A stretch of 60,139 bases of DNA, counting the filler, from Candidatus Woesearchaeota archaeon (lineage in GTDB: Archaea > Nanobdellota > Nanobdellia > Woesearchaeales > GCA-2685855), in NCBI GenBank assembly GCA_002685855.1. It is 5 parts of 5 records of this genome, joined end to end, with 100 filler letters (N's around TTAATTAATTAA, not from the genome) between each part and the next. Parts side by side here need not be neighbours in the genome. Positions count along the whole stretch, not along the records: positions 18,963 to 26,107 come from NYYS01000041.1; 4 more parts are not named here. The stretch is one strand, 5' to 3'. Positions 23,676 through 48,460 of the stretch are shown here, in pieces (positions within the stretch are counted from its first letter, which is position 1; every line of letters begins with the position of its first letter). A program made the translations under genes and the position numbers. The notes beneath the pieces were generated by a model. The model was given only the letters and a program-made list of their open reading frames with translations. It did not search any database and was not told the DNA's origin.

Positions 23676-23900
23676 ATGGAACAATCACGACCCTTAGACG
23701 CCCTCAACCGGGCAAGAAACAAACGCGTTCTCGTAGAACTCAAAAACAACAAACAATACTTTGGAACCCTTCTCGCGTTCGACATACACATAAATACTGT
23801 GCTAGCAGACGCTGAAGAACACGTCAACGGCGAACTAAAAAGAAAACTGGGAACCCTCTTCATCAGAGGAGACACCATCACGATTCTCTCTCCACAATAA
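23676..23900 (+). CDS. Sm/LSm RNA-binding protein (SmAP1)
   Basis: RPLDAL, G.L.AFD.H.N.VL.DAEE, IRGDT; upstream of L37e. Confidence 0.92.
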   Translation: MEQSRPLDALNRARNKRVLVELKNNKQYFGTLLAFDIHINTVLADAEEHVNGELKRKLGTLFIRGDTITILSPQ

Positions 23901-23911
23901 GGTGAAATACA

Positions 23912-24076
23912 ATGAGTAAAGGAACTGCCGCAAGAGGAAGAAACTCATCCAAAAAGTCCCATATTATATGCAGACGCTGCAGTGGCCACAGCTACCACAT
24001 CCACAAAAAACGATGCAGCAGCTGCGGATACGGCAAAACATCCAAAGTCAGAAGCTACAGCTGGCAGAAAAAGTAG
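23912..24076 (+). CDS. rpl37e: 50S ribosomal protein L37e (not in the ORF track)
   Basis: MSKGTAARGRNSSKKSHIICRRCSGHSYHIHKKRCSSCGYGKTSKVRSYSWQKK*. Confidence 0.95.
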   Translation: MSKGTAARGRNSSKKSHIICRRCSGHSYHIHKKRCSSCGYGKTSKVRSYSWQKK

Positions 24077-24285
24077 ATTTCTAAAGAATATCTTTGCTAT
24101 ATATTAATAGGCTCCCTGTTTTCCTAATAATCTGGCCTCTAATCCCTGAATTTCTATCCTCTTCACCCCTTTGCTTCATTTATCTGTCACAATGTATTCT
24201 CACCAGAAGAAAGATTTTATAAATAACCTCGTTCCTGCCTTCATCAGCAGGAAGAGAACTATTTTCTCTACCTTGCTTCCCTTTT

Positions 24286-24454
24286 GCGGGGATGCCGGAG
24301 TGGCCAAAACCGTTCAGGAGGTAAAGCCTGAACGTTGGCTTTACGGGACAGGCTTAGGTCACCCAGGTGGAAGACACCTGTTGGCTTAGACAAGCAACAA
24401 ATTTTTTTTGTGTTTGGAGCAGTGCCTACGCAGGTTCGAATCCTGCTCCCCGCA
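24286..24454 (+). tRNA. tRNA-Leu(TAG) with three introns (24308-24342, 24359-24375, 24390-24422)
   Basis: Acceptor GCGGGGA/TCCCCGC-A, T arm GCAGG-TTCGAAT-CCTGC, anticodon arm ACAGG-CTTAGGA-CCTGT; removing three hairpin inserts gives an 84-nt cloverleaf. Confidence 0.9.
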
Positions 24455-24652
24455 TCTTACCTTTCTTCCAATTTTCTTTTTAAAAGGCGCTAAAAAAAAT
24501 CCTTCTTCGTATATAAAGGGTATATAAATGAGTCCTGTTTTTCCTTTTTTGTAGTAAAGGCTTCAATCTATGATATTTTTGGGCTGGAAGGCCTTTTGGC
24601 AAAGTGGGTACTTTTCTTGCATAGGGAGCTACGAAAACTTTATAAATAAGTA

Positions 24653-24824
24653 TCAACATTTCAAGGGTCAATCAGTGTGTTTATCGTGCATATTCGTATA
24701 TGAAGGCATACATGAAACTGTCGTCATGGCGGTTCCAAGCGCAAACTTTATATACGATTCTGCAAATAAGCATACAGTGGTTCACAGAAACTTGATGTTG
24801 AGTGAAACACGTGGAGGTGTTTAG
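24653..24824 (+). promoter_or_regulatory. Structured leader of the S-layer gene
   Basis: Nested inverted repeats 24675-24705/24746-24775; GGAGGTG RBS before ATG. Confidence 0.55.
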
Positions 24825-26107
24825 ATGAAAGTAAAAAATGCGATTAAGAAAATAGCCGCACTAGGAACAGGCGTTGTCATGGTTGGTGCAACAATGACAG
24901 GAGCTTTAGCGGCACTGGAAGACTATCCGGCCCCTTTTGTAACAGAAGGAGTCTATGATGCATTAATTGTAGTAGGAGAAGCAGCAGCAACATCAGACGT
25001 TTTAGGCGCAATTGATATATCCGCAAGCCTGCAAGCAGCAGCAGTAACAGCAGTTGATGTTGATACAGGCGGGTCCACAAGTATCTCAGGAGACAGCCTT
25101 GAATGGAGCAAAGGAAGCAACATTCTTGAAATTGGTGAAAACCTGAGCGTAGTGCGACAGACATTGACAGATGAGGATCTTGATGTGCTTGCGCAGGGAA
25201 GTGTTTCCAACTCAAAAGGAACCACAACCTACGACCAATATATTAGATTGTCAAACAAGACACCTTCAAGAGTAGAATATGCACAGCCTTCAACAGGTCC
25301 ACACGAAGACGTTGTTGGTGACTACCTTTTAATACCTTATAGTGGTTCACAGTGGAGTTTTGAATACTCAGTTGAGTTCGCAGACGGATTTGATTCAGAT
25401 ATTCTCTCAACACTAGTCTTAGATGATATCGAAGATGAAGGTCTAAGTATGCTTGGCGGAGATTATAGCGTCCTGACAGCAGTCATGTCTGGTGGATCCA
25501 GCACAACCGACTGTACAGACGATATAACAGCATCCATAACATTTGTTGGTGGAGCAATCTCAGACATCCTGGATGCAGGCCAAACAAAGACCTATACATT
25601 AGATGGTGTTGACTACGAAGTCACCGCAGTCTTTATCAGTAACCAGAACCCTGAAACCGTTGTTTTAAGCATTAACGGAGAAACAACAGAAGAGATGCAG
25701 GAAGGAGAGACAGAAGTCTTGAACGATGGAACATCTATCGCCATCGACAGCATCCTGACAAACTCAGAAACAGGAGTCGTTGAATTCAAATTGGGCGCAG
25801 ATAAGATCTACTTCTCTGATACAAACGTAACAGACACGATCTTCTCTGGAACAGCACCCGAGTTCAACAACGAAAAGGTAACAGAAGGCCGAGTCAGAAT
25901 AGACGGTTCAATTACCGGAAGCGGTAACGATGGAAACTGCGATCTAAGTATGACTGCAATCTACTACCAATTAGCCCTGGAATCAGATGACGACGCAGTA
26001 TATGTTGCACCTGGAGAATCTGTCCGAGATGTAACAGATGCAGACATCCTACCAGGAATGTTTGGACTCTGGGATGTCCGATACGAAGGACTTGTTGATG
26101 CAGGAAC
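24825..26107 (+). CDS. S-layer protein (3' truncated)
   Basis: IKKIAALGTG..M.GAT..GALAA.L.DYPAPFV..IVVGE.AA.SDV.GA.DI N-terminus; acidic. Confidence 0.88.
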
Positions 26108-38653: not shown

Positions 38654-39451
38654 AAATAAATCGGCAATCCCAGCTGCCTGCTCTAAATATCCCCCGCTGT
38701 TATTTCTTAGGTCAAGCAAAAGCCTTTTCATTCCTTTTGTTTTTAGTCGTTTAATTGCCTTTTCTACTTCCTGTTTGGTTGTTGCTGAAAATCTTGTGAG
38801 GCGGATATATCCAGTAGAGTCGTCTACCATTATTTCTGCTCTGACGCTATAAATTGGAATATTGTCCCTTACAATGGTAACATTAAATGGTTTTTTGGTT
38901 CCTATTCGTTTTATGGTTATATCGACCGGTGTCCCCTTTTTTCCTCTGAGTTTTTCAAACACCTGCTCTTTTTTTATTTCATATGCGTCCTCTCCATTGA
39001 TTTTGATAATTTTGTCTCCCGGCTGTAGGCCAGCTCGCTCCGAGGGGCTGTCCGCCACCGGTGTAATGACAGTGATGTATCCATTTAAAATATCAAACTC
39101 TATTCCAATGCCTTGAAACTTTCCCTTAAATTTTTCATCGCTATCTTCCAGCTCTTTTGGGGGAATGTAAACCGAGTGTGGATCTAGTTTTTTCATAATA
39201 CCCTCAAAGGCTCCGTCCATCAACTTTGCTAGGTCTACCTTTTCAAAATGATATTCATTTATATACGTTATGATTTGAATGAGAACCTGCATTTTTCCGT
39301 TTAGGGTTTCATTGGTTCCTTTTCCTTGGCCATAAATAAGTTGATAAAATGAGGAAAAGAACATGAAAAGAAGCCCCGCACACATAATCAGTGTTGTTTT
39401 TTTTATATTTAAAAAATATTTCACAGTTCCTTTGTTCATGTTTAGCCGCAA
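38654..39451 (-). CDS. ctpA: S41 carboxy-terminal processing protease with PDZ domain (3' truncated)
   Basis: LDPHSVY, GIGIEF PDZ, GYIRLTRFS, LDLRNNSGG. Confidence 0.9.
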
Positions 39452-39644
39452 ATCTATCTCGGAATTGCCAAAACATACCAGAACTCATTTGCTAACAATA
39501 TCTCCCGGGGGTTGGGTGTTTTGATTACCATATTTGTCTAGAATAACACCAATTAGGATTTTATCTATTTAAGGCGGCCTATAAAAACCTATCGAAAACA
39601 GTGTGCGCAAAAGGGTTTTTCGTAAAAAATGTTTTTATAATATG

Positions 39645-41000
39645 TCAAAAATTTGCAACAGAGAGATCCCTGCTTATTTGATCAATAAACTTTGTAACAG
39701 CTATCTTTTTTTTATAAACTTTTTCTACCTGGGAACACGCATGTATAACGGTAGTATGGTCCCTTCCTCCAAAAAAAAGTCCAATCGATGTCAGGGTGTT
39801 GTTTGTTAGTTCCCTACAAAGATACATTGCCAAGTGTCTTGTTTTTACAATTTCCTTTCTTCTTGATGGGCCCACAATTATTTTAACTGGAAAGTTCCTG
39901 ATGTCTGAGACTTTTTTTACAACATCTTCCAGGTTCAGCTCTAAAATCATTTCCTTCCCTAGTTTTTCTCTTATAACTTCCTCAACCAGATCTCTGTTTA
40001 TTTCTTTTCCATGTAGCGATGAGTTTGCAAGTAAGCGGATGATAATGCTCTCTAAAACGCGTATGTTGGTTTTTATGTGGGTAGCAATTAATTCGACAAG
40101 GTCATATTGAAGTTCTAGCCCGCTCTGTTGTGCTTTTTCCAACAATATAGCAACCCTTGTTTCGAAGTCAGGGGGTTGAATGTCCACAGAGAGCCCAGAT
40201 TGAAATCTTGAGACCAGTCTTTCCTGAAGACCCCTCATGTCTCCTGGATAGGTATCTGCAGAAAGAACTATTTGCTTATTGAGCTGTTGTAATTCATTAA
40301 AGGTATGAAAAAATTGTTCTTGTGTTTGTTCTTTTCCTTTAAAAAACTGAATATCATCGATAAGCAGCAAATCTGTGTTCCTATATTTTTTAGTGAATTC
40401 TCCGTTGGTGTTTTTTTGTATACTATTAATGAACTCCTGTGTAAAGCGTTCGCTTGTCTCAAGTACAACCTTTTTACTGATTCCTTTTGCCAGTGCGTGG
40501 TTACCTATTGCGTGAAGCAAATGTGTTTTTCCTAGTCCAACACCTCCATAGATGACGAGAGGATTATAATGAGATTCGCCCGGGTTTTGAGCAACGGACA
40601 TTGCAGCGGCTTTTGCAAATTGATTGTTAACACCTTCGATAAAAGAACTAAATCTGTGGTTTTTGTTTATAAAGTTGGGGACGGGTCTTTTATATTTTTG
40701 TTTTTCTGTTTCTCTATCGTTGTGGTTTATGATAGTATTTTTTCTGGTAGACACGGTATACTTAATATTTAGAGGGTGCCCGTAGTTGTCAACAGCCCTT
40801 CTCTTTATTGTATCTTTGTAGTGAGTATCCAGCCACTCATAAAAAAATTGATTTGGAACTTCGAGAATGAGCTCTTGTTCGTTTAGGGCTACCGGCCTGA
40901 TTGGCGCAATCCACGTATTAAAGGCCTGATTCGGCATTTCTATTTTAATAGATGTTTTTATTGTTTGCCATGCTGACTTGTATTTTTGTTTTTTATCCAC
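39645..41000 (-). CDS. dnaA: Chromosomal replication initiator DnaA
   Basis: YNPLVIYGGVGLGKTHLL, LLIDDIQF, RLVSRF, GGRDHTTVIHAC. Confidence 0.97.
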   Translation of the reverse strand: MDKKQKYKSAWQTIKTSIKIEMPNQAFNTWIAPIRPVALNEQELILEVPNQFFYEWLDTHYKDTIKRRAVDNYGHPLNIKYTVSTRKNTIINHNDRETEKQKYKRPVPNFINKNHRFSSFIEGVNNQFAKAAAMSVAQNPGESHYNPLVIYGGVGLGKTHLLHAIGNHALAKGISKKVVLETSERFTQEFINSIQKNTNGEFTKKYRNTDLLLIDDIQFFKGKEQTQEQFFHTFNELQQLNKQIVLSADTYPGDMRGLQERLVSRFQSGLSVDIQPPDFETRVAILLEKAQQSGLELQYDLVELIATHIKTNIRVLESIIIRLLANSSLHGKEINRDLVEEVIREKLGKEMILELNLEDVVKKVSDIRNFPVKIIVGPSRRKEIVKTRHLAMYLCRELTNNTLTSIGLFFGGRDHTTVIHACSQVEKVYKKKIAVTKFIDQISRDLSVANF

Positions 41001-41012
41001 AGGTTATCCACA
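40993..41012. promoter_or_regulatory. Two perfect DnaA boxes (TTATCCACA)
   Basis: 40993-41001 and 41004-41012, followed by an AT-rich spacer up to rpmH (candidate oriC). Confidence 0.85.
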
Positions 41013-41199
41013 TTTTGTTTTTTGCGGTCTTCGTTGTAAAATTAAACACTATTTTCTGTTTTTTCCTAGTGTAAATATGTTAAATCCATTGTTTTTTTGT
41101 TTCCATATATAATTAAGTGTAATTAAGAACCCATCTAATAATTTTGTTTTTTTATATAAAGATGGCGTATCTTTCCCGGCTAAATAATAAGGCTTTTTT

Positions 41200-41334
41200 A
41201 TGAAAAGAACATATCAACCTCATAATAAAAAAAGGAGGCGCACTCACGGCTTTAGAAAAAGAATGTCTACCAAGGCCGGAAGAAGGGTTTTGTCCCGCCG
41301 TCGCCAGCGAGGCCGACGGTCCATTAGCGTATAG
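41200..41334 (+). CDS. rpmH: 50S ribosomal protein L34 (not in the ORF track)
   Basis: [44 protein letters not shown]. Confidence 0.97.
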
Positions 41335-41340
41335 GGCCGG

Positions 41341-41586
41341 GTGTTTTTTTCAACAGCCGCAAGGGCGGTCGACAGGGCTGTTCTTTTATTTTTTTGGGCG
41401 ACCATTAAGTTTTATAAAGTTTTTCTTTCTCCGCTTTTAGGTTCACGGTGTCGGTTTTCTCCGACTTGCTCACATTATGCTTTGCTGTCAGTAAAAAAAC
41501 ACTCCTCTTTTGTTGCTTTAGTTAAAATTATAAAAAGACTAATTAAGTGTCACCCGCTTCACCCTGGAGGTTATGATCCACTATAA
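41341..41586 (+). CDS. yidD: Membrane protein insertion efficiency factor YidD
   Basis: LSPLLG..CRFSPTCSHYA...KCHPLHPGGYDP. Confidence 0.92.
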   Translation: MFFSTAARAVDRAVLLFFWATIKFYKVFLSPLLGSRCRFSPTCSHYALLSVKKHSSFVALVKIIKRLIKCHPLHPGGYDPL

Positions 41587-41588
41587 AA

Positions 41589-43316
41589 ATGGATAGACGA
41601 TCTTTGTTAGCCATGTTTCTTATTGCCTTGGTGATAATTTTAATGCCCTATTATTTTCAGGCAATCTCACCTGTTTCTGGGTCCCCATTTCCTGTTTCTG
41701 GATGCACAGACCCGGATGCAAACAACTACGACATAAATGCAACCGACGACGACGGAAGTTGTATGTACGTGGCGCCCAAAGCAGAAGCGACCCCTGACTT
41801 AAAACAAAGTGCTCTTTCAATAACTAAACACGAGGAAAAACTCATTACAGTTGACACCCCTCTTTATACTGCCATTATCTCTTCCGCTGGCGGTGGCTCT
41901 ATTAAAAGTTTTGATCTTAAAAAATACCTACTGGCTGACTCTTCCCAGGTAAATCTAATTTCTGATATTAACTCAAACAATCTATTAATATCTTTCCAAA
42001 ATATTTATGGTGAGTATGTTTCAATGCAAGACCCATGGCTAACAGATGAGTCCAGACAACATGTTGAGGTTTTTGGGAGCCCCTTTCTCTTAAGGTTTTC
42101 TACTGTATATGAAGAAACTTCAATAGAAAAAACGCTCACATTTGAACCAAGGTCTTATGTGATTAAGGTCTCTGCGGATATGACCGACGCCTCTGAGCGG
42201 GTTTTGGGCGACTTTTGTTCAATAACCTGGGAGGGGGGGCTCCCCCCAACAGAGCCAAACATTAAGGACGATATTACATATTTCAATGGCTATGTATATC
42301 AGGCAGGAGACAGTTATCAATTTAAAAAAGTGGCTCCCGGTATTGAAAAAAACCAAGGCGGCGCTATGGAGGTCGTTCGGGGTAAAACAGATTGGGTGGC
42401 AATACGCTCTAAATATTTCACCTCTGTTTTTTTGCCTAACGAAGAAAGTGATATTTGTTGGGTGGGGCTAAAGGAGGAAAAAGCGGGTTCATTACCTGTT
42501 CCTGTTTATAACATGGGAATGGGTTTTAACAAAAACCAGTCCTCTATCGTTTCTTTGTATCTTGGGCCGCTCGAGTATGATGCGGTAAGGGAGGTAAGCG
42601 AGGGCCTTCCTAGTATAATGAACTTTGGATTTTCCCTTATTCGGCCGATATCCTTAGGTGTTTTATGGCTTTTAAAGTTTTTTCATCGCTGGTTTCCTAA
42701 CTATGGAGTGGTTTTAATATTGTTTTCTGTGGTCGTTAAAATAATGGTCTTTCCTTTAACAAAAAAGAGCCACCAGTCCTCCAAAGAGATGCAAGCTCTT
42801 CAGCCAGAAATTGCCCGGCTAAAAGAAAAACACAAAAACAACCCGCAAAAATTAAACCAGGCCACAATGAACCTATACAAAGAACATGGCGTAAACCCGC
42901 TTGGTGGCTGTTTGCCTCTTCTAATTCAAATGCCTTTGCTTATTTCTCTTTTTCAGGTTTTTCGTTCTACTATTGAACTACGCGGGGCATACTTTTTTGG
43001 GTGGATAACTGACCTTTCCGCTCCGGATGTTATTTTTAGGCTTCCATTCTCTATCCCTTTATATGGAGACGGTTTCGCGGTTCTGCCCATAATAATGGGA
43101 GTAACTATGTTTGTCCAACAAAAAATGATGCCAACACAGGCAACAGGACAGCAAAAATTTATGTCTTACTTTATGACGGGATTTTTTGTTCTCTTGTTTA
43201 ATGGTTTTCCCTCTGGGCTTAACCTATATTACACTCTTTTTAATGTTCTTACTATCCTACAACAAAAATACCTTACCCCCTCTGTTAATAAAAAAATCTT
43301 AACAAAAAAACAATGA
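41589..43316 (+). CDS. yidC: Membrane protein insertase YidC
   Basis: NYGVVLILFS, MQALQPEI, GVNPLGGCLPLLIQMP, WITDLSAPD, PSGLNLY. Confidence 0.96.
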   Translation: MDRRSLLAMFLIALVIILMPYYFQAISPVSGSPFPVSGCTDPDANNYDINATDDDGSCMYVAPKAEATPDLKQSALSITKHEEKLITVDTPLYTAIISSAGGGSIKSFDLKKYLLADSSQVNLISDINSNNLLISFQNIYGEYVSMQDPWLTDESRQHVEVFGSPFLLRFSTVYEETSIEKTLTFEPRSYVIKVSADMTDASERVLGDFCSITWEGGLPPTEPNIKDDITYFNGYVYQAGDSYQFKKVAPGIEKNQGGAMEVVRGKTDWVAIRSKYFTSVFLPNEESDICWVGLKEEKAGSLPVPVYNMGMGFNKNQSSIVSLYLGPLEYDAVREVSEGLPSIMNFGFSLIRPISLGVLWLLKFFHRWFPNYGVVLILFSVVVKIMVFPLTKKSHQSSKEMQALQPEIARLKEKHKNNPQKLNQATMNLYKEHGVNPLGGCLPLLIQMPLLISLFQVFRSTIELRGAYFFGWITDLSAPDVIFRLPFSIPLYGDGFAVLPIIMGVTMFVQQKMMPTQATGQQKFMSYFMTGFFVLLFNGFPSGLNLYYTLFNVLTILQQKYLTPSVNKKILTKKQ

Positions 43317-44674
43317 TCCTTTCGGATACTATTGTTGCTGTCGCAACCCCACACGGTTTCGGCGGGATATCTGTGATTAGAATAAGCGGTCCAGACTCCA
43401 AAAATATCATAAAAAAGATATCCTTAACCAATAGGAAAAACAAACAATTCAAACATCAGGCCGTTACTCTTGTTAATATTATTGACAATGACGGCCTGCC
43501 CTTTGAAGAGAGTGTTGTTACTTTTTTTAAAAAACCCCACTCCTATACCGGTGAAGACACCATAGAGGTTTCTTGCCACGGAAACCCCTCAATTGTTAAT
43601 CGAATTGTTTCTTTATGTTGTACCTCTGGGGCGCGGCCAGCCGACCCTGGAGAGTTCACCAAAAGAGCCTTTCTAAATGGCAAAATGGACCTGGTTCAGG
43701 CAGAGGCCGTTGCCTCTTTAATTCACTCTAAAACCGCGGAAGGCGCATCTTTAAATTTTAAAATACTTTGTGGTGATTTATCAAAAGAAATGAATACCAT
43801 AAAAAAAGAACTGAAAGACCTTTTGGTGAAGATTGAGTTTGAGCTAGATATTAGCGAGGACTGCCTGCAACCCAACCTTGTCTCTCGTTCCCTGTTGTCC
43901 CTTAAAACCATCCAAGCAACCATAAAGACTGCCCTGGAAAGTCACAACTCAGTTCGAATGCTAAACGATGGGGCAAACGTCGTGATTTGCGGTGCGCCAA
44001 ACGCAGGAAAATCAACACTCCTTAATTGTCTTTCTGGCATTGATAGGGCAATTACCGGCCCTGAAGCAGGAACAACTAGAGATACCATTAGGGCCTCTAT
44101 TTCAATTGGGGGAACCCCCGTTACCCTTATAGACACAGCGGGCCTTCGTGTTTCAAAAAACAAAATTGAAAAAGAAGGGGTAGTTCGGACCAAAAAAGAG
44201 ATAACCCGATCAGACTGTGTGCTTGCGCTTACACCGGCAGACATCCCTATTAAGAAAAAACATCTCAAAATCTCTAGCGGGCCAACTATACATGTAATAA
44301 CCAAAGCCGATTTGTGTACCAAGAAAAAAATTTTTTATTTCAAAAATAAGTTTCCTAGCGCATGTATTATCTCGGCTAAAACCTCTTTTGGTGTTCCAAA
44401 ACTATTAGATGCTCTTCAAAAACACATGGGGCTCTTTTCTTCCCTTAGCCCTATTGTCCCCGTCACCACAGGCAGGCAAAACTTAATTCTAAAAAAAATA
44501 AGTTGTTGTATTCAAAAATCAACAAACCTACTTTCTTCCAAGGGAAACCCACAACTCGAACTAGTTTCTTTTGAACTTCGCGATGCCCTGGAACAAATAG
44601 ACGCTGTGCTTGGAAAAACCTCTACTGATGAAATCCTTAATAGTGTTTTTGGTTCTTTTTGTGTTGGAAAATAG
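43313..44674 (+). CDS. mnmE: tRNA modification GTPase MnmE
   Basis: DTIVAVATP, GEFTKRAFLNGK, GAPNAGKS, GTTRD, DTAG, FCVGK. Confidence 0.96.
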   Translation: MILSDTIVAVATPHGFGGISVIRISGPDSKNIIKKISLTNRKNKQFKHQAVTLVNIIDNDGLPFEESVVTFFKKPHSYTGEDTIEVSCHGNPSIVNRIVSLCCTSGARPADPGEFTKRAFLNGKMDLVQAEAVASLIHSKTAEGASLNFKILCGDLSKEMNTIKKELKDLLVKIEFELDISEDCLQPNLVSRSLLSLKTIQATIKTALESHNSVRMLNDGANVVICGAPNAGKSTLLNCLSGIDRAITGPEAGTTRDTIRASISIGGTPVTLIDTAGLRVSKNKIEKEGVVRTKKEITRSDCVLALTPADIPIKKKHLKISSGPTIHVITKADLCTKKKIFYFKNKFPSACIISAKTSFGVPKLLDALQKHMGLFSSLSPIVPVTTGRQNLILKKISCCIQKSTNLLSSKGNPQLELVSFELRDALEQIDAVLGKTSTDEILNSVFGSFCVGK

Positions 44675-44688
44675 TTTCACGTGAAACG
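44673..44688. promoter_or_regulatory. parS site
   Basis: AGTTTCACGTGAAACG vs consensus TGTTTCACGTGAAACA. Confidence 0.85.
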
Positions 44689-46561
44689 CCCGTCTCCATT
44701 TTTTGATGTTATTGTTGTAGGCGGTGGGCATGCCGGGGCCGAGGCCTCCCTAATCTGCGTGAAGCTCGGCCTTTCTGTTTCCCTTGTAACCATCAACCCG
44801 GGGGCTGTTGGTAGAATGTCTTGCAATCCATCGATTGGTGGCCTTGCAAAGGGCCAGCTTGTTAGAGAAATAGATGTTCTTGGTGGAATAATGGGAAAAA
44901 TTACTGACCTTTCTGCTCTTCAATATAAAATGCTAAACAAGTCCAAAGGAAGGGCGGTGTGGTCACCAAGGGCACAGGTTGACAAAAGGATATACGAGCA
45001 AGAGGTGTTGCGCAGGGTTTCTTCTCCTAAAAACCTGTCTATTTTGCGGGGAGAGGTTGTAAAAATAAACACCTCCGGAGGGGGTGTGTCTGGGGTTGTT
45101 TTATTGTCGGGAAAAGTGCTGTTTTGCCGTGCACTTATTATAACCTGTGGCACCTTCTTAAATGGGCTTATTCATATTGGAGAACAAAAAACAAGAGCCG
45201 GAAGAATGGGGGAAAGGCATAGTCATGGGATTACAGAATCTCTGCGTTCTCTTGGTTTTTGCTCCTCAAGGTTAAAAACAGGAACCCCCCCAAGAATAAA
45301 AACATCTTCTATAGATTTTTCTAAATGTTCGGTTTCGCCTGGAGACAGGGAACCTTCTCCTTTTTCACACTTTACCTCTGTTTTTTCCTCCCCAAACTTG
45401 CCGTGCTATATAACCAAAACAAACACGGTCACTCATAAAATAATAAACCAAAACATGCACCTTTCCCCTATGTTCACCGGGGACGTTGTTGGGCGTGGCC
45501 CCAGATATTGCCCCTCAATTGAGGATAAAATATATCGTTTTCCAAAGAGAAATGAGCACGCTCTCTACCTTGAGCCGGAGTGGCGCAATTCAGGTCAGGT
45601 TTATTTAAATGGCTTTTCTACAAGCCTTCCAATGTCCACGCAAATAAAGGCCCTAAGAGCGGTTCCTGCCCTCAAAAACCTTGAACTTTTGCGACCCGGA
45701 TATGCAATTGAGTATGATTTTTTTCCTCCGTCTCAGCTCAAAACGACCCTTGAAACCAAGACCGTCTCTGGTCTGTTTTTAGCAGGACAGATAAACGGAA
45801 CCTCTGGATATGAAGAGGCCGCTGGCCAGGGACTTGTTGCTGGTATAAATGCCGCTATGTTTGTTTTGAATAAAAAGCCTCTTCTTCTTTCTAGGGAAGA
45901 CTCTTATCTTGGGGTAATGCTTGACGATCTTACAACAAAGGACACGCTTGAGCCTTATCGAATGTTTACCTCCAGGGCAGAATATCGGTTGCTTCTTCGA
46001 TATTCCAATGCGGAAAGCCGGCTCATTAAGCATTCAGACAAACATTGCCTTTTAACAAAAAGAGAGCTTTCTGTTCTTCAAAAAAAAATAAACCTTACTA
46101 ATGCCATGGTCAGCGCCACCCAGGTCTCTCTGAGTAAAAGGGCTCTAAATCATATTTTACAAAAAATCGGAGAACCTCTGGTTAAACAAAAAAAACCAAT
46201 AATAGATATTTTAAAAAGGCCCCGTGTTTCTATAAAAGACTTTAAGGAGCACATTTTAGATGAACACCTTAAGGCCACAACCCTTTTTTTTTCACTGGCT
46301 GAAGAGGCTGCCCTTGAGGCGGAGACCATTATTAAATATGATGGATATATAAAGCGCCAAAAAGACCAAATAAAAAAACTGTCATCAATAAACAAAAAAA
46401 AGATTCCTTATGACTTCAACTATAAGGGGGTTGTTAGCCTTTCTCGGGAAGCAAAAGAAAAGCTATCAATAATCAAACCAGAAACTCTTGGCCAGGCCAT
46501 GAGAGTTTCTGGTGTTAACCCCTCTGACATTGCGGTATTGTCTGTTTTTCTTTATAGGTAG
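44681..46561 (+). CDS. mnmG: tRNA uridine-34 modification enzyme MnmG
   Basis: VVGGGHAG, MSCNPSIGG, GPRYCPSIEDK, AGQINGTSGYEEAA, PYRMFTSRAEYRL. Confidence 0.97.
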   Translation: MKRPSPFFDVIVVGGGHAGAEASLICVKLGLSVSLVTINPGAVGRMSCNPSIGGLAKGQLVREIDVLGGIMGKITDLSALQYKMLNKSKGRAVWSPRAQVDKRIYEQEVLRRVSSPKNLSILRGEVVKINTSGGGVSGVVLLSGKVLFCRALIITCGTFLNGLIHIGEQKTRAGRMGERHSHGITESLRSLGFCSSRLKTGTPPRIKTSSIDFSKCSVSPGDREPSPFSHFTSVFSSPNLPCYITKTNTVTHKIINQNMHLSPMFTGDVVGRGPRYCPSIEDKIYRFPKRNEHALYLEPEWRNSGQVYLNGFSTSLPMSTQIKALRAVPALKNLELLRPGYAIEYDFFPPSQLKTTLETKTVSGLFLAGQINGTSGYEEAAGQGLVAGINAAMFVLNKKPLLLSREDSYLGVMLDDLTTKDTLEPYRMFTSRAEYRLLLRYSNAESRLIKHSDKHCLLTKRELSVLQKKINLTNAMVSATQVSLSKRALNHILQKIGEPLVKQKKPIIDILKRPRVSIKDFKEHILDEHLKATTLFFSLAEEAALEAETIIKYDGYIKRQKDQIKKLSSINKKKIPYDFNYKGVVSLSREAKEKLSIIKPETLGQAMRVSGVNPSDIAVLSVFLYR

Positions 46562-46564
46562 CTT

Positions 46565-48460
46565 GTGGTTTCACGTGAAACAGGTTTTTGTTCAATAGGT
46601 GACTTTTTAAGTTTCTATAAAAAAACAATTTTAAAAACAAAAGGAGAGGTTGAGGGTTCTCTTTCTTTGGAGGCCGCCACAATGGCAGTTCTTTCCTCTT
46701 CGTCTTCTGTTGGTCTTTTTGTTATAATTTCTGCGGACGAAAAAACCGCAACCCGTCTCTATACTGCGGCTTATGGGTTGTGTCCCGACTCTTCGTTTCT
46801 TTTGCCGTGCCTGGAGCCAAAAAAGGACCGCGTTCCTGGGTTTGTTTCAGAGAACCAGCGATATACAGAAGAGGCTCTGTCTGTTTTGTTTTCTGGGAAT
46901 CGAGGTGGAAGAGTTTTTACAACAGTTTCTGCCCTTGAGCGGGCACGCTCTCCCCGCATCCGCTCGTGCGATGAAGAACTTGCTGTTCGCTTGAAACAGA
47001 CACTAAAAATGAGTGCTCTTCTTCGTTTTTTAGACCGTTGGGGGTACCAGAAAACTGATCGAGTGGAAAGCCCGTTAAGTTATGCAGTTAGGGGTGGGAT
47101 TTTAGATTTTTACCTTGTTTATTCAAGAAACCCAATTCGAATAGAGTTTTTTGGCGACGTAATAGACTCTATTCGGCTGTTTAACCCTCAATCACAAAGA
47201 ACGGTTAGGCACCTGAAGGGGGTTGTGTTACTTCCTCGTCTTATTAAAAACAAAAAGAAAGAGGAAACCCTGTTATCTTTTGTTTCTTTTAATGACTCTA
47301 TTAATATATACGGTGTTGAGCATGGTCCCGGTGGAGGGTATCGGGTCTGCCTTGACGGCCCGGGCTCTTTTGCTCTACCTTTAGAGTCTGAGGAAATATC
47401 CCAACAGGCTATAAAAAGGGTCGTTAAAGAAAAATCTTCTGTTTGTTTTTTTTCGTTTTATGAGCGCAGCTCCTATGTCGAGCCTTCCTCTTTTTTGCCT
47501 GCAGGTTACACCGCGAAAAAAATTAGAGCACCCCTAGAAAGTGGGTTTGTCTTGGTAGGTTTTGGTGTTGTTGTTTTTGGGGCCGAAAGCCTCTCGGGCC
47601 CTTCTAAGGCCCCCCCGTCCCGCTGGGCTGTGTTTGGAGATCCTGAAGAACAACATATGGAAATTATTGATATTTCAGACCTCGTGTGGGGTGAAAATAT
47701 TGTACATGAGGAGTTTGGAATTGGTATTTATCGTGGAATAGAAAAAACTGGCGGCAGTGATTGCATTAAGATTAAATATGCAGGTGGCGGCTCTGTTTTC
47801 GTTCCCGCTCACAGTTTTAACAGACTACATCGGCTTGTTGGAGTCAAGGAGGGCTCTGCAAGGCTTTCGTCGCTGGGGGCCGGGTTGTGGAAAAGAAAAA
47901 AGGATAAAATAAAAAAACATGCTCGCTCTATTGCCAAGGACCTTCTTAAAACTCACGCATTAAGACAGGGTTCTCGTGGTTTTGTGTACCAAAAGAAGGG
48001 TGGTTTTTATCGGGCCGTCTGTGAGTCTTTTCCTTTTCAAGAAACTGCCGGGCAAGAGTCGGCCTTGTATGATGTTGACTCTGACATGGAAAAAGACCTC
48101 CCAATGGATAGAATGGTTTGTGGAGATGTTGGGTACGGAAAAACAGAAATAGCCCTCCGTGCGGCAATAAGGGCAGTTGAAAGTGATCGTGTTGTTTTTG
48201 TTATGGCCCCAACAACTGTCTTGGCAAACCAACACTATATCAGCTTTGGGCGACGCCTTTCTCCCCTTGGGGTTAATGTAGAGCTTTTGTCTCGCTTTAG
48301 AACAAAACGAGAACAAATAAAAATTATTGAGGCCCTTGCCCGAGGCATTGTTGATGTTCTTGTTGGCACCCACAGGCTAATGTCGGAGGACGTTTACACA
48401 GAAAACCTTGGACTCATTATTCTTGACGAAGAACATCGTTTTGGTGTAAAACATAAAGAA
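46565..48460 (+). CDS. mfd: Transcription-repair coupling factor Mfd (3' truncated)
   Basis: VRGGILDF..RIEFFGD UvrB-like region, VHEEFGIG.Y RID, CGDVGYGKTE, DEEHRFGV. Confidence 0.9.
46567..46582. promoter_or_regulatory. parS site
   Basis: GGTTTCACGTGAAACA. Confidence 0.85.

Follow-up and report, generated by a model that had tools for sequence, protein, structure and literature searches.

Can a 169-nt stretch, half of which would have to be removed as intron, be a working tRNA gene of a Woesearchaeota archaeon, and does its host encode the machinery to splice it? The window, i.e., the whole stretch of 60,139 nt that was analysed, consists of five contigs joined by spacers, and the tRNA locus lies on one of them (G000:C41:5324-5492). 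The source bin (G000) comprises 953 kb in 66 contigs and is rated 94% complete. The original prediction was that removal of 35, 17 and 33 nt would reduce the 169-nt locus at 24286-24454 to an 84-nt tRNA-Leu(UAG), half of the gene being intron. These coordinates were reproduced, with introns taking up 85 of the 169 nt, and splicing gives a clean cloverleaf, named Leu(TAG) by ARAGORN, in which all stems pair (acceptor stem 7/7). The parts of the gene are as follows, with intron positions in Sprinzl numbering.

24286..24307, + strand: exon 1, tRNA positions 1-21 (ARAGORN on the spliced form, orthologue alignment)
24308..24342, + strand: intron 1, 35 nt, at 21/22; central helix with 4/4 pairs, without exon-side helix (HBh')
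24343..24358, + strand: exon 2, positions 22-37, with the anticodon UAG at 24355-24357 (ARAGORN on the spliced form, orthologue alignment)
24359..24375, + strand: intron 2, 17 nt, at the canonical 37/38; central helix 3/4 with an A.G apposition
24376..24389, + strand: exon 3, position 38 to base 4 of the 5-nt variable-arm loop (ARAGORN on the spliced form, orthologue alignment)
24390..24422, + strand: intron 3, of 33 nt, splitting the variable-arm loop between its bases 4 and 5
24423..24454, + strand: exon 4, remainder of the variable arm, T arm, acceptor 3' strand and discriminator A73

The four exons follow one another in order along the 169 nt, so the gene is neither split nor permuted, and CCA is not encoded after A73.

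The junctions were recovered from homology, with BHB rules unused. The gene matched 53 of 61 genomes of the order by BLAST and its 3' part matched 166 of 401; 122 matches (returned loci plus 60 fetched regions; 119 unique, 116 resolved) were aligned to an intron-free profile. Spliced alignment to intron-free genes by homology only yielded the same three inserts, small slides between equivalent registers aside, and intron removal restores a cloverleaf matching the intron-free orthologues, the nearest of which are identical to the spliced product at 81/84 (L078) and 80/84 (L026) positions. One Logan contig of run X1 covers 23852-24698 with 0 differences and 0 gaps; X1 is perhaps the source sample, and the contig therefore argues solely against an assembly error. 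The RNA run X8 covers 25533-25689 only, with the tRNA outside, and is uninformative on expression, while seven sequencing runs with a small share of the locus were not counted as evidence. A joint 24308-24435 seen in sequencing runs was rejected, as its source is a tRNA gene of the same length in another organism. An intact intron-free Leu(TAG) gene elsewhere, which would have made the locus a pseudogene, was looked for, and no second Leu(UAG) gene was found in the 94%-complete bin. A Leu(CAG) gene was not found in the bin either; CTA occurs 1,657 times and CTG 2,218 times in its long ORFs. Copies of the three introns elsewhere in the bin were restricted to short or T-run matches. Judged by its sequence, the locus is a real tRNA-Leu(UAG) gene interrupted by three short BHB-type introns.

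The central helices and bulges proposed for the three introns were all found as described. At the homology-defined junctions, the central helices have 4/4, 3/4 (A.G) and 4/4 pairs, each between two 3-nt bulges, and equally good helices arose in 0.27%, 0.10% and 0.09% of 100,000 shuffles of introns 1, 2 and 3, respectively. The intron helix of intron 3 also pairs 4/4. The exon-side helix is absent from introns 1 and 3, which are thus relaxed HBh' motifs, not full hBHBh'. Among Leu genes of the order, the first h pair is mismatched in 19/19 introns at 21/22 and 8/8 in the variable arm, and present in 73/73 at 37/38. The central helix is fully paired (4/4) in 17 of the 19 introns at 21/22 and in all eight of the variable arm, and at 21/22 it shows exon-intron covariation (C-G 13, T-A 5, mismatch 1). 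The last central-helix pair is unpaired in 24/42 canonical Leu(UAG) introns, so the A.G of intron 2 is common. The BHB fold costs 3.2 and 3.6 kcal/mol over the free fold in introns 1 and 3, and 11.0 kcal/mol in intron 2 (rank 67 of 73 canonical introns; median 6.4), whose weak hairpin has to compete with a strong alternative fold. A 29-nt register for intron 3, given by a BHB-only finder, was rejected because the resulting variable loop is unlike that of all orthologues and two relatives permit the 33-nt-type register only.

The flanks of the gene carry candidate transcription signals.

24205..24224, + strand: purine-rich BRE-like stretch and TATA box, 70 nt ahead of the tRNA (from sequence; function putative)
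24246..24277, + strand: hairpin in the putative 5' leader, -12.5 kcal/mol, the only copy in the bin
24455..24487, + strand: pyrimidine/T-rich stretch, a likely terminator (from sequence)

In 15 of 28 other tRNA genes inspected in the bin, a TATA match lies 29-34 nt ahead of +1. The TATA-to-tRNA distance is longer than usual here because the hairpin fills the gap, making the putative leader about 38 nt longer than in many of the bin's other tRNA genes. The hairpin was also considered as a fourth intron, located in the acceptor stem, and this was rejected since that stem is already complete. LSM and L37e genes are the 5' neighbours and an S-layer-like gene is the 3' neighbour; no integrase or repeat is adjacent to the gene. 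The next contig (window 26303-35104) contains two long ORFs of 689 and 2,241 aa with YD/RHS-like repeats by eye, unrelated to the tRNA.

The splicing enzyme departs from expectation. Multi-intron tRNAs had been predicted to need a broad-specificity endonuclease, and the enzyme is not of a type known to be broad: the sole EndA found is one alpha subunit (single gene, 211 aa, one N and one C domain, intact Tyr-His-Lys triad) without a beta subunit, a three-unit chain, or an inserted L1 (CSL) or L2 (ASL) loop. Together with RtcB, it provides what is expected of a host of BHB introns. Genes for an RNase Z-like protein, Rpp29, fibrillarin, Nop5 and L7Ae are also present, with endA and the RNase Z-like gene head to head about 110 nt apart (L001:1474-3120, G000:C25); searches of the incomplete (94%) bin gave neither RNase P RNA (RF00373) nor HARP. 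The closest solved relative of this EndA is the N. equitans alpha subunit (E 1.2e-37). The protein aligns to the M. jannaschii alpha4 enzyme without a gap in the active-site loop, its N-terminal insert site is one residue longer, and it has the acidic L10 loop and C-terminal strand required for a homotetramer. It is taken to be an alpha4-type enzyme, a predicted homotetramer, to which papers attribute a narrow range. Nine residues separate the catalytic Tyr and His, as in M. jannaschii, versus 15 in N. equitans and 14 in ARMAN-2. This spacing is kept in 110/110 EndA loci, drawn from two sets of closest relatives that possibly overlap, leaving no insert of L3 length and an invariant K/R-P-G at the place of the L3 lysines; the N-terminal insert site (L1/L2) has 8-10 residues in the 102 loci that were parsed (8 unparsed). 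Among the best 80 titled relatives, 52 are Woesearchaeota, Nanoarchaeota/Nanoarchaeia or Nanobdellota, 24 'Methanosarcinales' and 4 'archaeon', and the 'Methanosarcinales' titles are presumably automatic mislabels; the host very probably belongs to Woesearchaeales. The likeness to ARMAN lineages drawn in the original prediction stands for the introns, which fit ARMAN-2 with its epsilon2 enzyme, and fails for the enzyme, which is of the ARMAN-4/5 alpha4 kind.

According to the accessible text of the relevant studies, relaxed motifs are cut efficiently only by (alpha-beta)2 and epsilon2 enzymes (PMC6379350, PMC5829648) and are tied to such enzymes with inserted loops (PMC6379350, PMC12397907). 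Kaneta 2018 described L3-bearing alpha4 EndAs in DPANN with more disrupted tRNAs, plus unidentified disrupted genes there, in a survey that included one Woesearchaeota genome; under the definition of that paper, as far as its available parts give it, the short K-P-G loop may count as L3 (PMC5829648). The conflict between relaxed motifs and an insert-less EndA is therefore real by length, not proven, and implies either that the enzyme is broad by another route or that a helper is missing from view. The latter would mean that the gene is spliced as described, with alpha alone too strict, and that the relaxed introns need the folded tRNA body or an unrecognised partner, i.e., a very divergent beta subunit, which could escape searches, or an RNA chaperone. 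Such dependence, compatible with a functional gene, is consistent with the lack of L1/L2/L3-length inserts in the 110 loci, with the strong competing fold of intron 2, and with the loop-less M. kandleri EndA, reported in the accessible part of PMC5829648 to be slow on HBh' in vitro despite removal in vivo. Against it, no second paralogue with either Pfam domain was found in the bin, and a protein search of 61 genomes gave one EndA match in 55, two in 3 (two being fragments) and none in 3, i.e., a single match in 55 of 58 matched genomes, single-contig genomes among them, with a query that reaches even the N. equitans beta subunit (E 2.5e-15). Moreover, the bin EndA has the parts for a homotetramer and the invariant K/R-P-G where L3 lysines lie, and a hidden partner is considered doubtful.

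The reading preferred here, and held with high confidence, is that of an essential tRNA-Leu(UAG) gene matured from a TATA-driven precursor by the bin's own EndA and RtcB, with intron 2 leaving last. While structure, junctions, motif geometry and the inventory and sequence type of the enzymes are observed, we infer transcription, cleavage by this EndA, the order of removal and the relic status of intron 2. Transcription from the TATA box at 24215 would yield a precursor carrying some 40 nt of leader; in it, each intron and its 5' exon flank would form a 4-bp helix between two 3-nt bulges. The single-subunit (alpha4-type) EndA would cut after the second bulge base and RtcB would join the ends, with the termini trimmed by RNase P and RNase Z and CCA added. 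The relaxed introns 1 and 3 are expected to fold readily, whereas intron 2 would first have to give up the competing hairpin that hides its 3' splice site, and is thus probably removed last.

Multi-intron genes are not exceptional in this bin. A census by a BHB/tRNA finder, ARAGORN and inspection gave 34 tRNA genes with about 50 introns (~1.5 per gene), ~36 of them non-canonical; a reversed-sequence control of the first finder version gave no match scoring at least 40, versus 54-62 for 20 real matches, and covers that version only, two relaxed versions also having contributed. Only 4 of the 34 genes are intron-free, so the cell must splice such motifs routinely, and six carry three introns (Asp, Gly(UCC), Trp, and Leu UAG, CAA and UAA). 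The census is partial, lacking genes for Val, for Tyr and for several isoacceptors. Two of the genes, Leu(GAG) on C1 and Gln(UUG) on C63, are likely to be chimeras or of foreign origin; excluding both leaves 48 introns in 32 genes. The intron density of the bin is near the published record, held by P. calidifontis with 71 introns in 46 genes (Thermoproteales 0.84 per gene, overall 0.21), as given in the accessible text of PMC8450103.

Several further observations concern these genes and their contigs. A 134-nt intron occurs in Ile(GAU), and introns of 86-107 nt, alike by eye, occur at 59/60 in many tRNAs (C14, C18, C23, C51, C54, C61, C65), with one at 19/20 instead (Arg CCU); this set looks like an intron spread between genes. 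Tandem short partial copies of the tRNA-Ser(UGA) 5' end lie just upstream of that gene (G000:C22:10910-11000). A 283-aa LAGLIDADG-domain ORF (L288:849-1700, G000:C48:21548-22399) lies between rpoD and a two-intron tRNA-Leu(GAG), overlapping the 5' part of the latter, and is possibly a homing nuclease tied to the tRNA intron site. At G000:C1:13102-14083, a second rpoD (48% identical) accompanies a tRNA whose 3' half is the same but whose 5' half differs; an att-site pair was considered for the two Leu(GAG) genes, but the rpoD genes before them are only 48% identical, and a chimeric contig or foreign DNA is likelier. Further signs of foreign DNA are that C63 repeats C51 genes at 51-62%, and that three ORFs at 80-85% are common to C27 and C43 (window 38654-48460), the contigs that deviate most in composition. 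Given some foreign DNA in the bin, the tRNA and enzyme contigs are tied only by binning and composition.

A separate possibility concerns why the introns persist. Randau and Soll hypothesised that archaeal tRNA introns protect attachment sites, as summarised in the available text of PMC4090602, and the original prediction likewise raised a block to virus integration. The introns would then be kept because they break virus attachment sites in tRNA sequences, and the proposal, in print for archaea, sits well with the 30/34 interrupted tRNA genes of the bin. It is nevertheless improbable: 20 of 65 sampled Leu(UAG) genes of the order are intron-free, the 32-nt 3' exon is whole, 3'-end repeats occur behind a two-intron gene in G092, and many canonical introns apparently serve otherwise, as guides. 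The G092 element (G092:C20:1319-1483) is a hairpin cassette ending in a tRNA-Leu 3'-end copy, and similar cassettes lie behind an intron-free Leu gene (L008:823-921 and 1535-1637).

The distribution of introns among related Leu genes bears on the third insert in particular. In the 116 resolved genes, introns occur at 37/38 (73), 30/31 (24), 21/22 (19), the variable-arm loop (8), 15/16 (2) and 59/60 (1), after 13 introns aligned at 38/39 or 39/40 were moved to 37/38, where the helix forms, with L025, L027 and L150 left out as unresolved and L147 probably mis-parsed. The 65 Leu(UAG) genes have no intron in 20 cases, one in 24, two in 15, three in 5 and four in 1; the sampling favours query-like genes with an intact 3' exon, so these counts are not frequencies for the order. 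A variable-arm intron is found in 8/65 Leu(UAG) genes, the query included, and in 0/51 other Leu genes, i.e., intron 3 has homologues in seven other genomes, with an identical insertion point, common ends and a variable interior. One of the eight, L082 (genome G244, unpublished), belongs as well to the pair of genes by which the register is fixed, and the claim rests on the others. Two other genomes share the combination of 21/22, 37/38 and variable arm, and another adds a fourth intron at 59/60 (L013:883-1100, G001:C165). Four introns are also present in a Leu(UAG) gene whose variable-arm insert of 89 nt reads by eye as two introns placed head to tail (L093, G298:C24), and in a 218-nt tRNA-Trp gene with introns at 22/23, 37/38, 53/54 and 59/60 (L243, G327:C2). 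The printed maximum per archaeal gene, in the accessible text of two papers, is up to three (PMC8450103, PMC4033280). The introns are probably passengers specific to lineages, which come and go at few tolerated sites. Two intron-free Leu genes (L090 and L096) have the anticodon AAG, rare in archaea and reported for ARMAN-4/5 in the available part of PMC3239211.

Two weaker readings are addressed by the same comparison. The 33-nt insert might be kept as an enlarged variable arm, with introns 1 and 2 alone removed, in view of its stable hairpin at the arm tip, where class II tRNAs vary in length; this is very improbable, given that 8/8 inserts keep a 4/4 helix and two 3-nt bulges despite interiors of 31 to 89 nt, that removal restores the conserved 5-nt loop exactly, and that two inserts fit only one register. 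Equally improbable is a pseudogene wrecked by insertions, with the working Leu(UAG) on an unassembled contig: the bin is only 94% complete and lacks Val and Tyr in the census, and intron 2 folds poorly into a BHB, but all spliced stems pair, a TATA box and T-rich tail are present, and the same three-site pattern recurs in the genomes named above.

Kink-turn geometry and the -5 rule of box C/D guides are well established. Kink-turns were detected in 38/60 of the relatives' 37/38 introns of at least 28 nt and in 1/41 introns at other sites, under a rule tightened once after the data had been seen (36/60 and 0/41 with the earlier rule), compared with a mean of 3.4 and a maximum of 8 in 300 shuffles. 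In a fixed register, and in related, non-independent genes, guide base -5 pairs with C39 in 21/22 Leu(UAG) and with C34 in 13/16 Leu(CAA) introns, base -1 is mostly unpaired (Watson-Crick in 0/22 and 2/16, respectively), and in Leu(UAG) there is covariation between base -3 and the end of the intron (G-C 14, A-T 6, mismatch 2). With the target left free, the best duplex fell on C39 in 17/22 and on C34 in only 6/16. These introns thus combine a kink-turn with a -5 base paired to its target, and are putative one-kink guides aimed at C39 or C34, with methylation predicted. In intron 2, six nucleotides (24364-24369) are complementary to the intron's own 3' splice junction and cover C39, and a kink-turn (D'/C' boxes) is absent from its 17 nt, which leaves it short of a guide; a 5-7-nt complement is kept in 4/19 other kink-less Leu(UAG) introns. 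Intron 2 is probably a relic of such a guide, and its competing hairpin would most likely be a remnant of the C39 kink-turn guide that is intact in many relatives. Similar features were noted elsewhere in the bin. Its Trp gene (G000:C36:12263-12450, L237:164-351) has three introns (22/23, 37/38, 59/60), the canonical 64-nt one resembling by eye a kink-turn guide to C34, like most parsed Trp introns of the order. Leu(CAA) and elongator Met (G000:C61:386-655, C65:3820-3941) have canonical introns of 48 and 47 nt with a kink-turn, in which the -5 base faces C34 and base -2 changes along with position 31 of the tRNA (T-A in Leu, C-G in Met).

Standard scanners had been predicted to miss such a gene, and they do: the unspliced locus is missed by ARAGORN at default settings and by Rfam at the gathering score, and ARAGORN with introns mislabels it as Gln(TTG), low-threshold ARAGORN being unusable with thousands of noise calls. 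ARAGORN with introns names 10 of the 34 tRNA genes of the bin correctly, and 11 pass the RF00005 cut-off. A 2026 preprint reported tRNA-Trp undetected by tRNAscan-SE in 30/123 complete Woesearchaeales genomes, with loss, detection failure and split genes as the explanations offered in its accessible text (10.64898/2026.05.13.725050). BLAST of the bin's Trp gene matched 118/201 genomes, and 50 loci were examined (the top 30 plus 20 more, 12 of the latter picked from few-contig genomes). A Trp gene was present in 48 of them, the bin's own included: 5 intron-free, 31 with one intron and 12 with two to four. ARAGORN with introns found 33/36 of the simple Trp genes and 0/12 of the multi-intron ones, and Rfam cmscan found 5/5 simple genes and 0/13 multi-intron Trp/Leu loci given. 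The idea that multi-intron genes explain missing tRNAs is thus supported as a testable lead. The match between 25% multi-intron and 24% missing Trp is suggestive only, the sample being biased and the missing share coming from tRNAscan-SE, which searches non-canonical introns.

An intron in the variable region was reportedly described by Kjems in 1989 in Thermofilum pendens, the site in Crenarchaeota being 45/46. C. merolae has one variable-arm tRNA intron (PMC3728597, accessible part); like these, intron 3 lies in the variable region, and unlike them it is placed in the terminal loop of a long class II arm. Publications already cover tRNAs with three introns, relaxed motifs and introns in the variable region, as the accessible parts of several papers attest (PMC4033280, PMC4090602, PMC3978253, PMC3218864, PMC3728597), e.g., Pyrobaculum islandicum tRNA-Pro(UGG) with introns at 25/26, 37/38 and 56/57 (PMC4090602). 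The gene resembles those of Thermoproteales in its three BHB introns, canonical and non-canonical, with relaxed motifs, and the bin (~1.5 introns per gene) resembles P. calidifontis (1.54) in density. In contrast, the Thermoproteales enzyme is (alpha-beta)2 with a CSL loop, whereas the bin has one alpha subunit without CSL; the lineage is another one, the third intron of the gene interrupts the loop of a long variable arm of class II, and Leu/Trp relatives of the bin's genes reach four introns, versus the 'up to three' of the available text (PMC8450103, PMC4033280). Methanopyrus kandleri pre-tRNA-Glu(UUC) similarly combines a D-loop HBh' intron and a canonical intron with an EndA lacking a specific loop, but that enzyme is (alpha-beta)2 (PMC5829648, accessible part), while the bin's single subunit faces ~36 non-canonical introns in 34 genes. 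A single alpha subunit is shared with the L3-bearing alpha4 enzymes of DPANN and the alpha4 enzyme of ARMAN-4/5, as described in the parts available (PMC5829648, PMC3239211). In the euryarchaeal pre-tRNA-Trp intron, a box C/D guide directs Cm34 and Um39 (PMC4090602, PMC7994747), which the 2014 review, in its accessible text, called the unique archaeal example (PMC4090602). The relatives' 37/38 introns likewise pair with their own precursor, the -5 base facing 34 or 39, but their guides are short, have one kink-turn and occur in Leu and Met besides Trp, and intron 2 of the present gene has lost the kink-turn. In the literature covered, which included few subscription papers, neither a comparable intron load in Woesearchaeales nor a four-intron archaeal tRNA was found described, nor was an intron at the class II arm tip, for which the original compilations of positions by Marck and Grosjean (2003) and Sugahara (2008) lay outside the coverage.

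By itself, the studied gene adds one to the known tRNAs with three introns, its third site being a rare one. In the accepted model, relaxed motifs go with EndAs that have inserted loops, and the bin pairs many relaxed motifs with a one-subunit, insert-less enzyme. Taken together, with an even chance of holding as a whole, Woesearchaeales would be an unreported major reservoir of multi-intron tRNAs (~1.5 introns per gene here, up to four per gene in relatives), in which a minimal EndA handles HBh' motifs, perhaps via its K-P-G loop, canonical introns serve as one-kink C34/C39 guides, reduced to a relic in the present gene, and the Trp genes missing from about a quarter of complete genomes are multi-intron, not split or lost. 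Since tRNA counts serve as a gauge of completeness and genome reduction in DPANN, hidden multi-intron genes would bear on the Trp genes reported, in the accessible text of the preprint, as missing from 30/123 genomes (10.64898/2026.05.13.725050).
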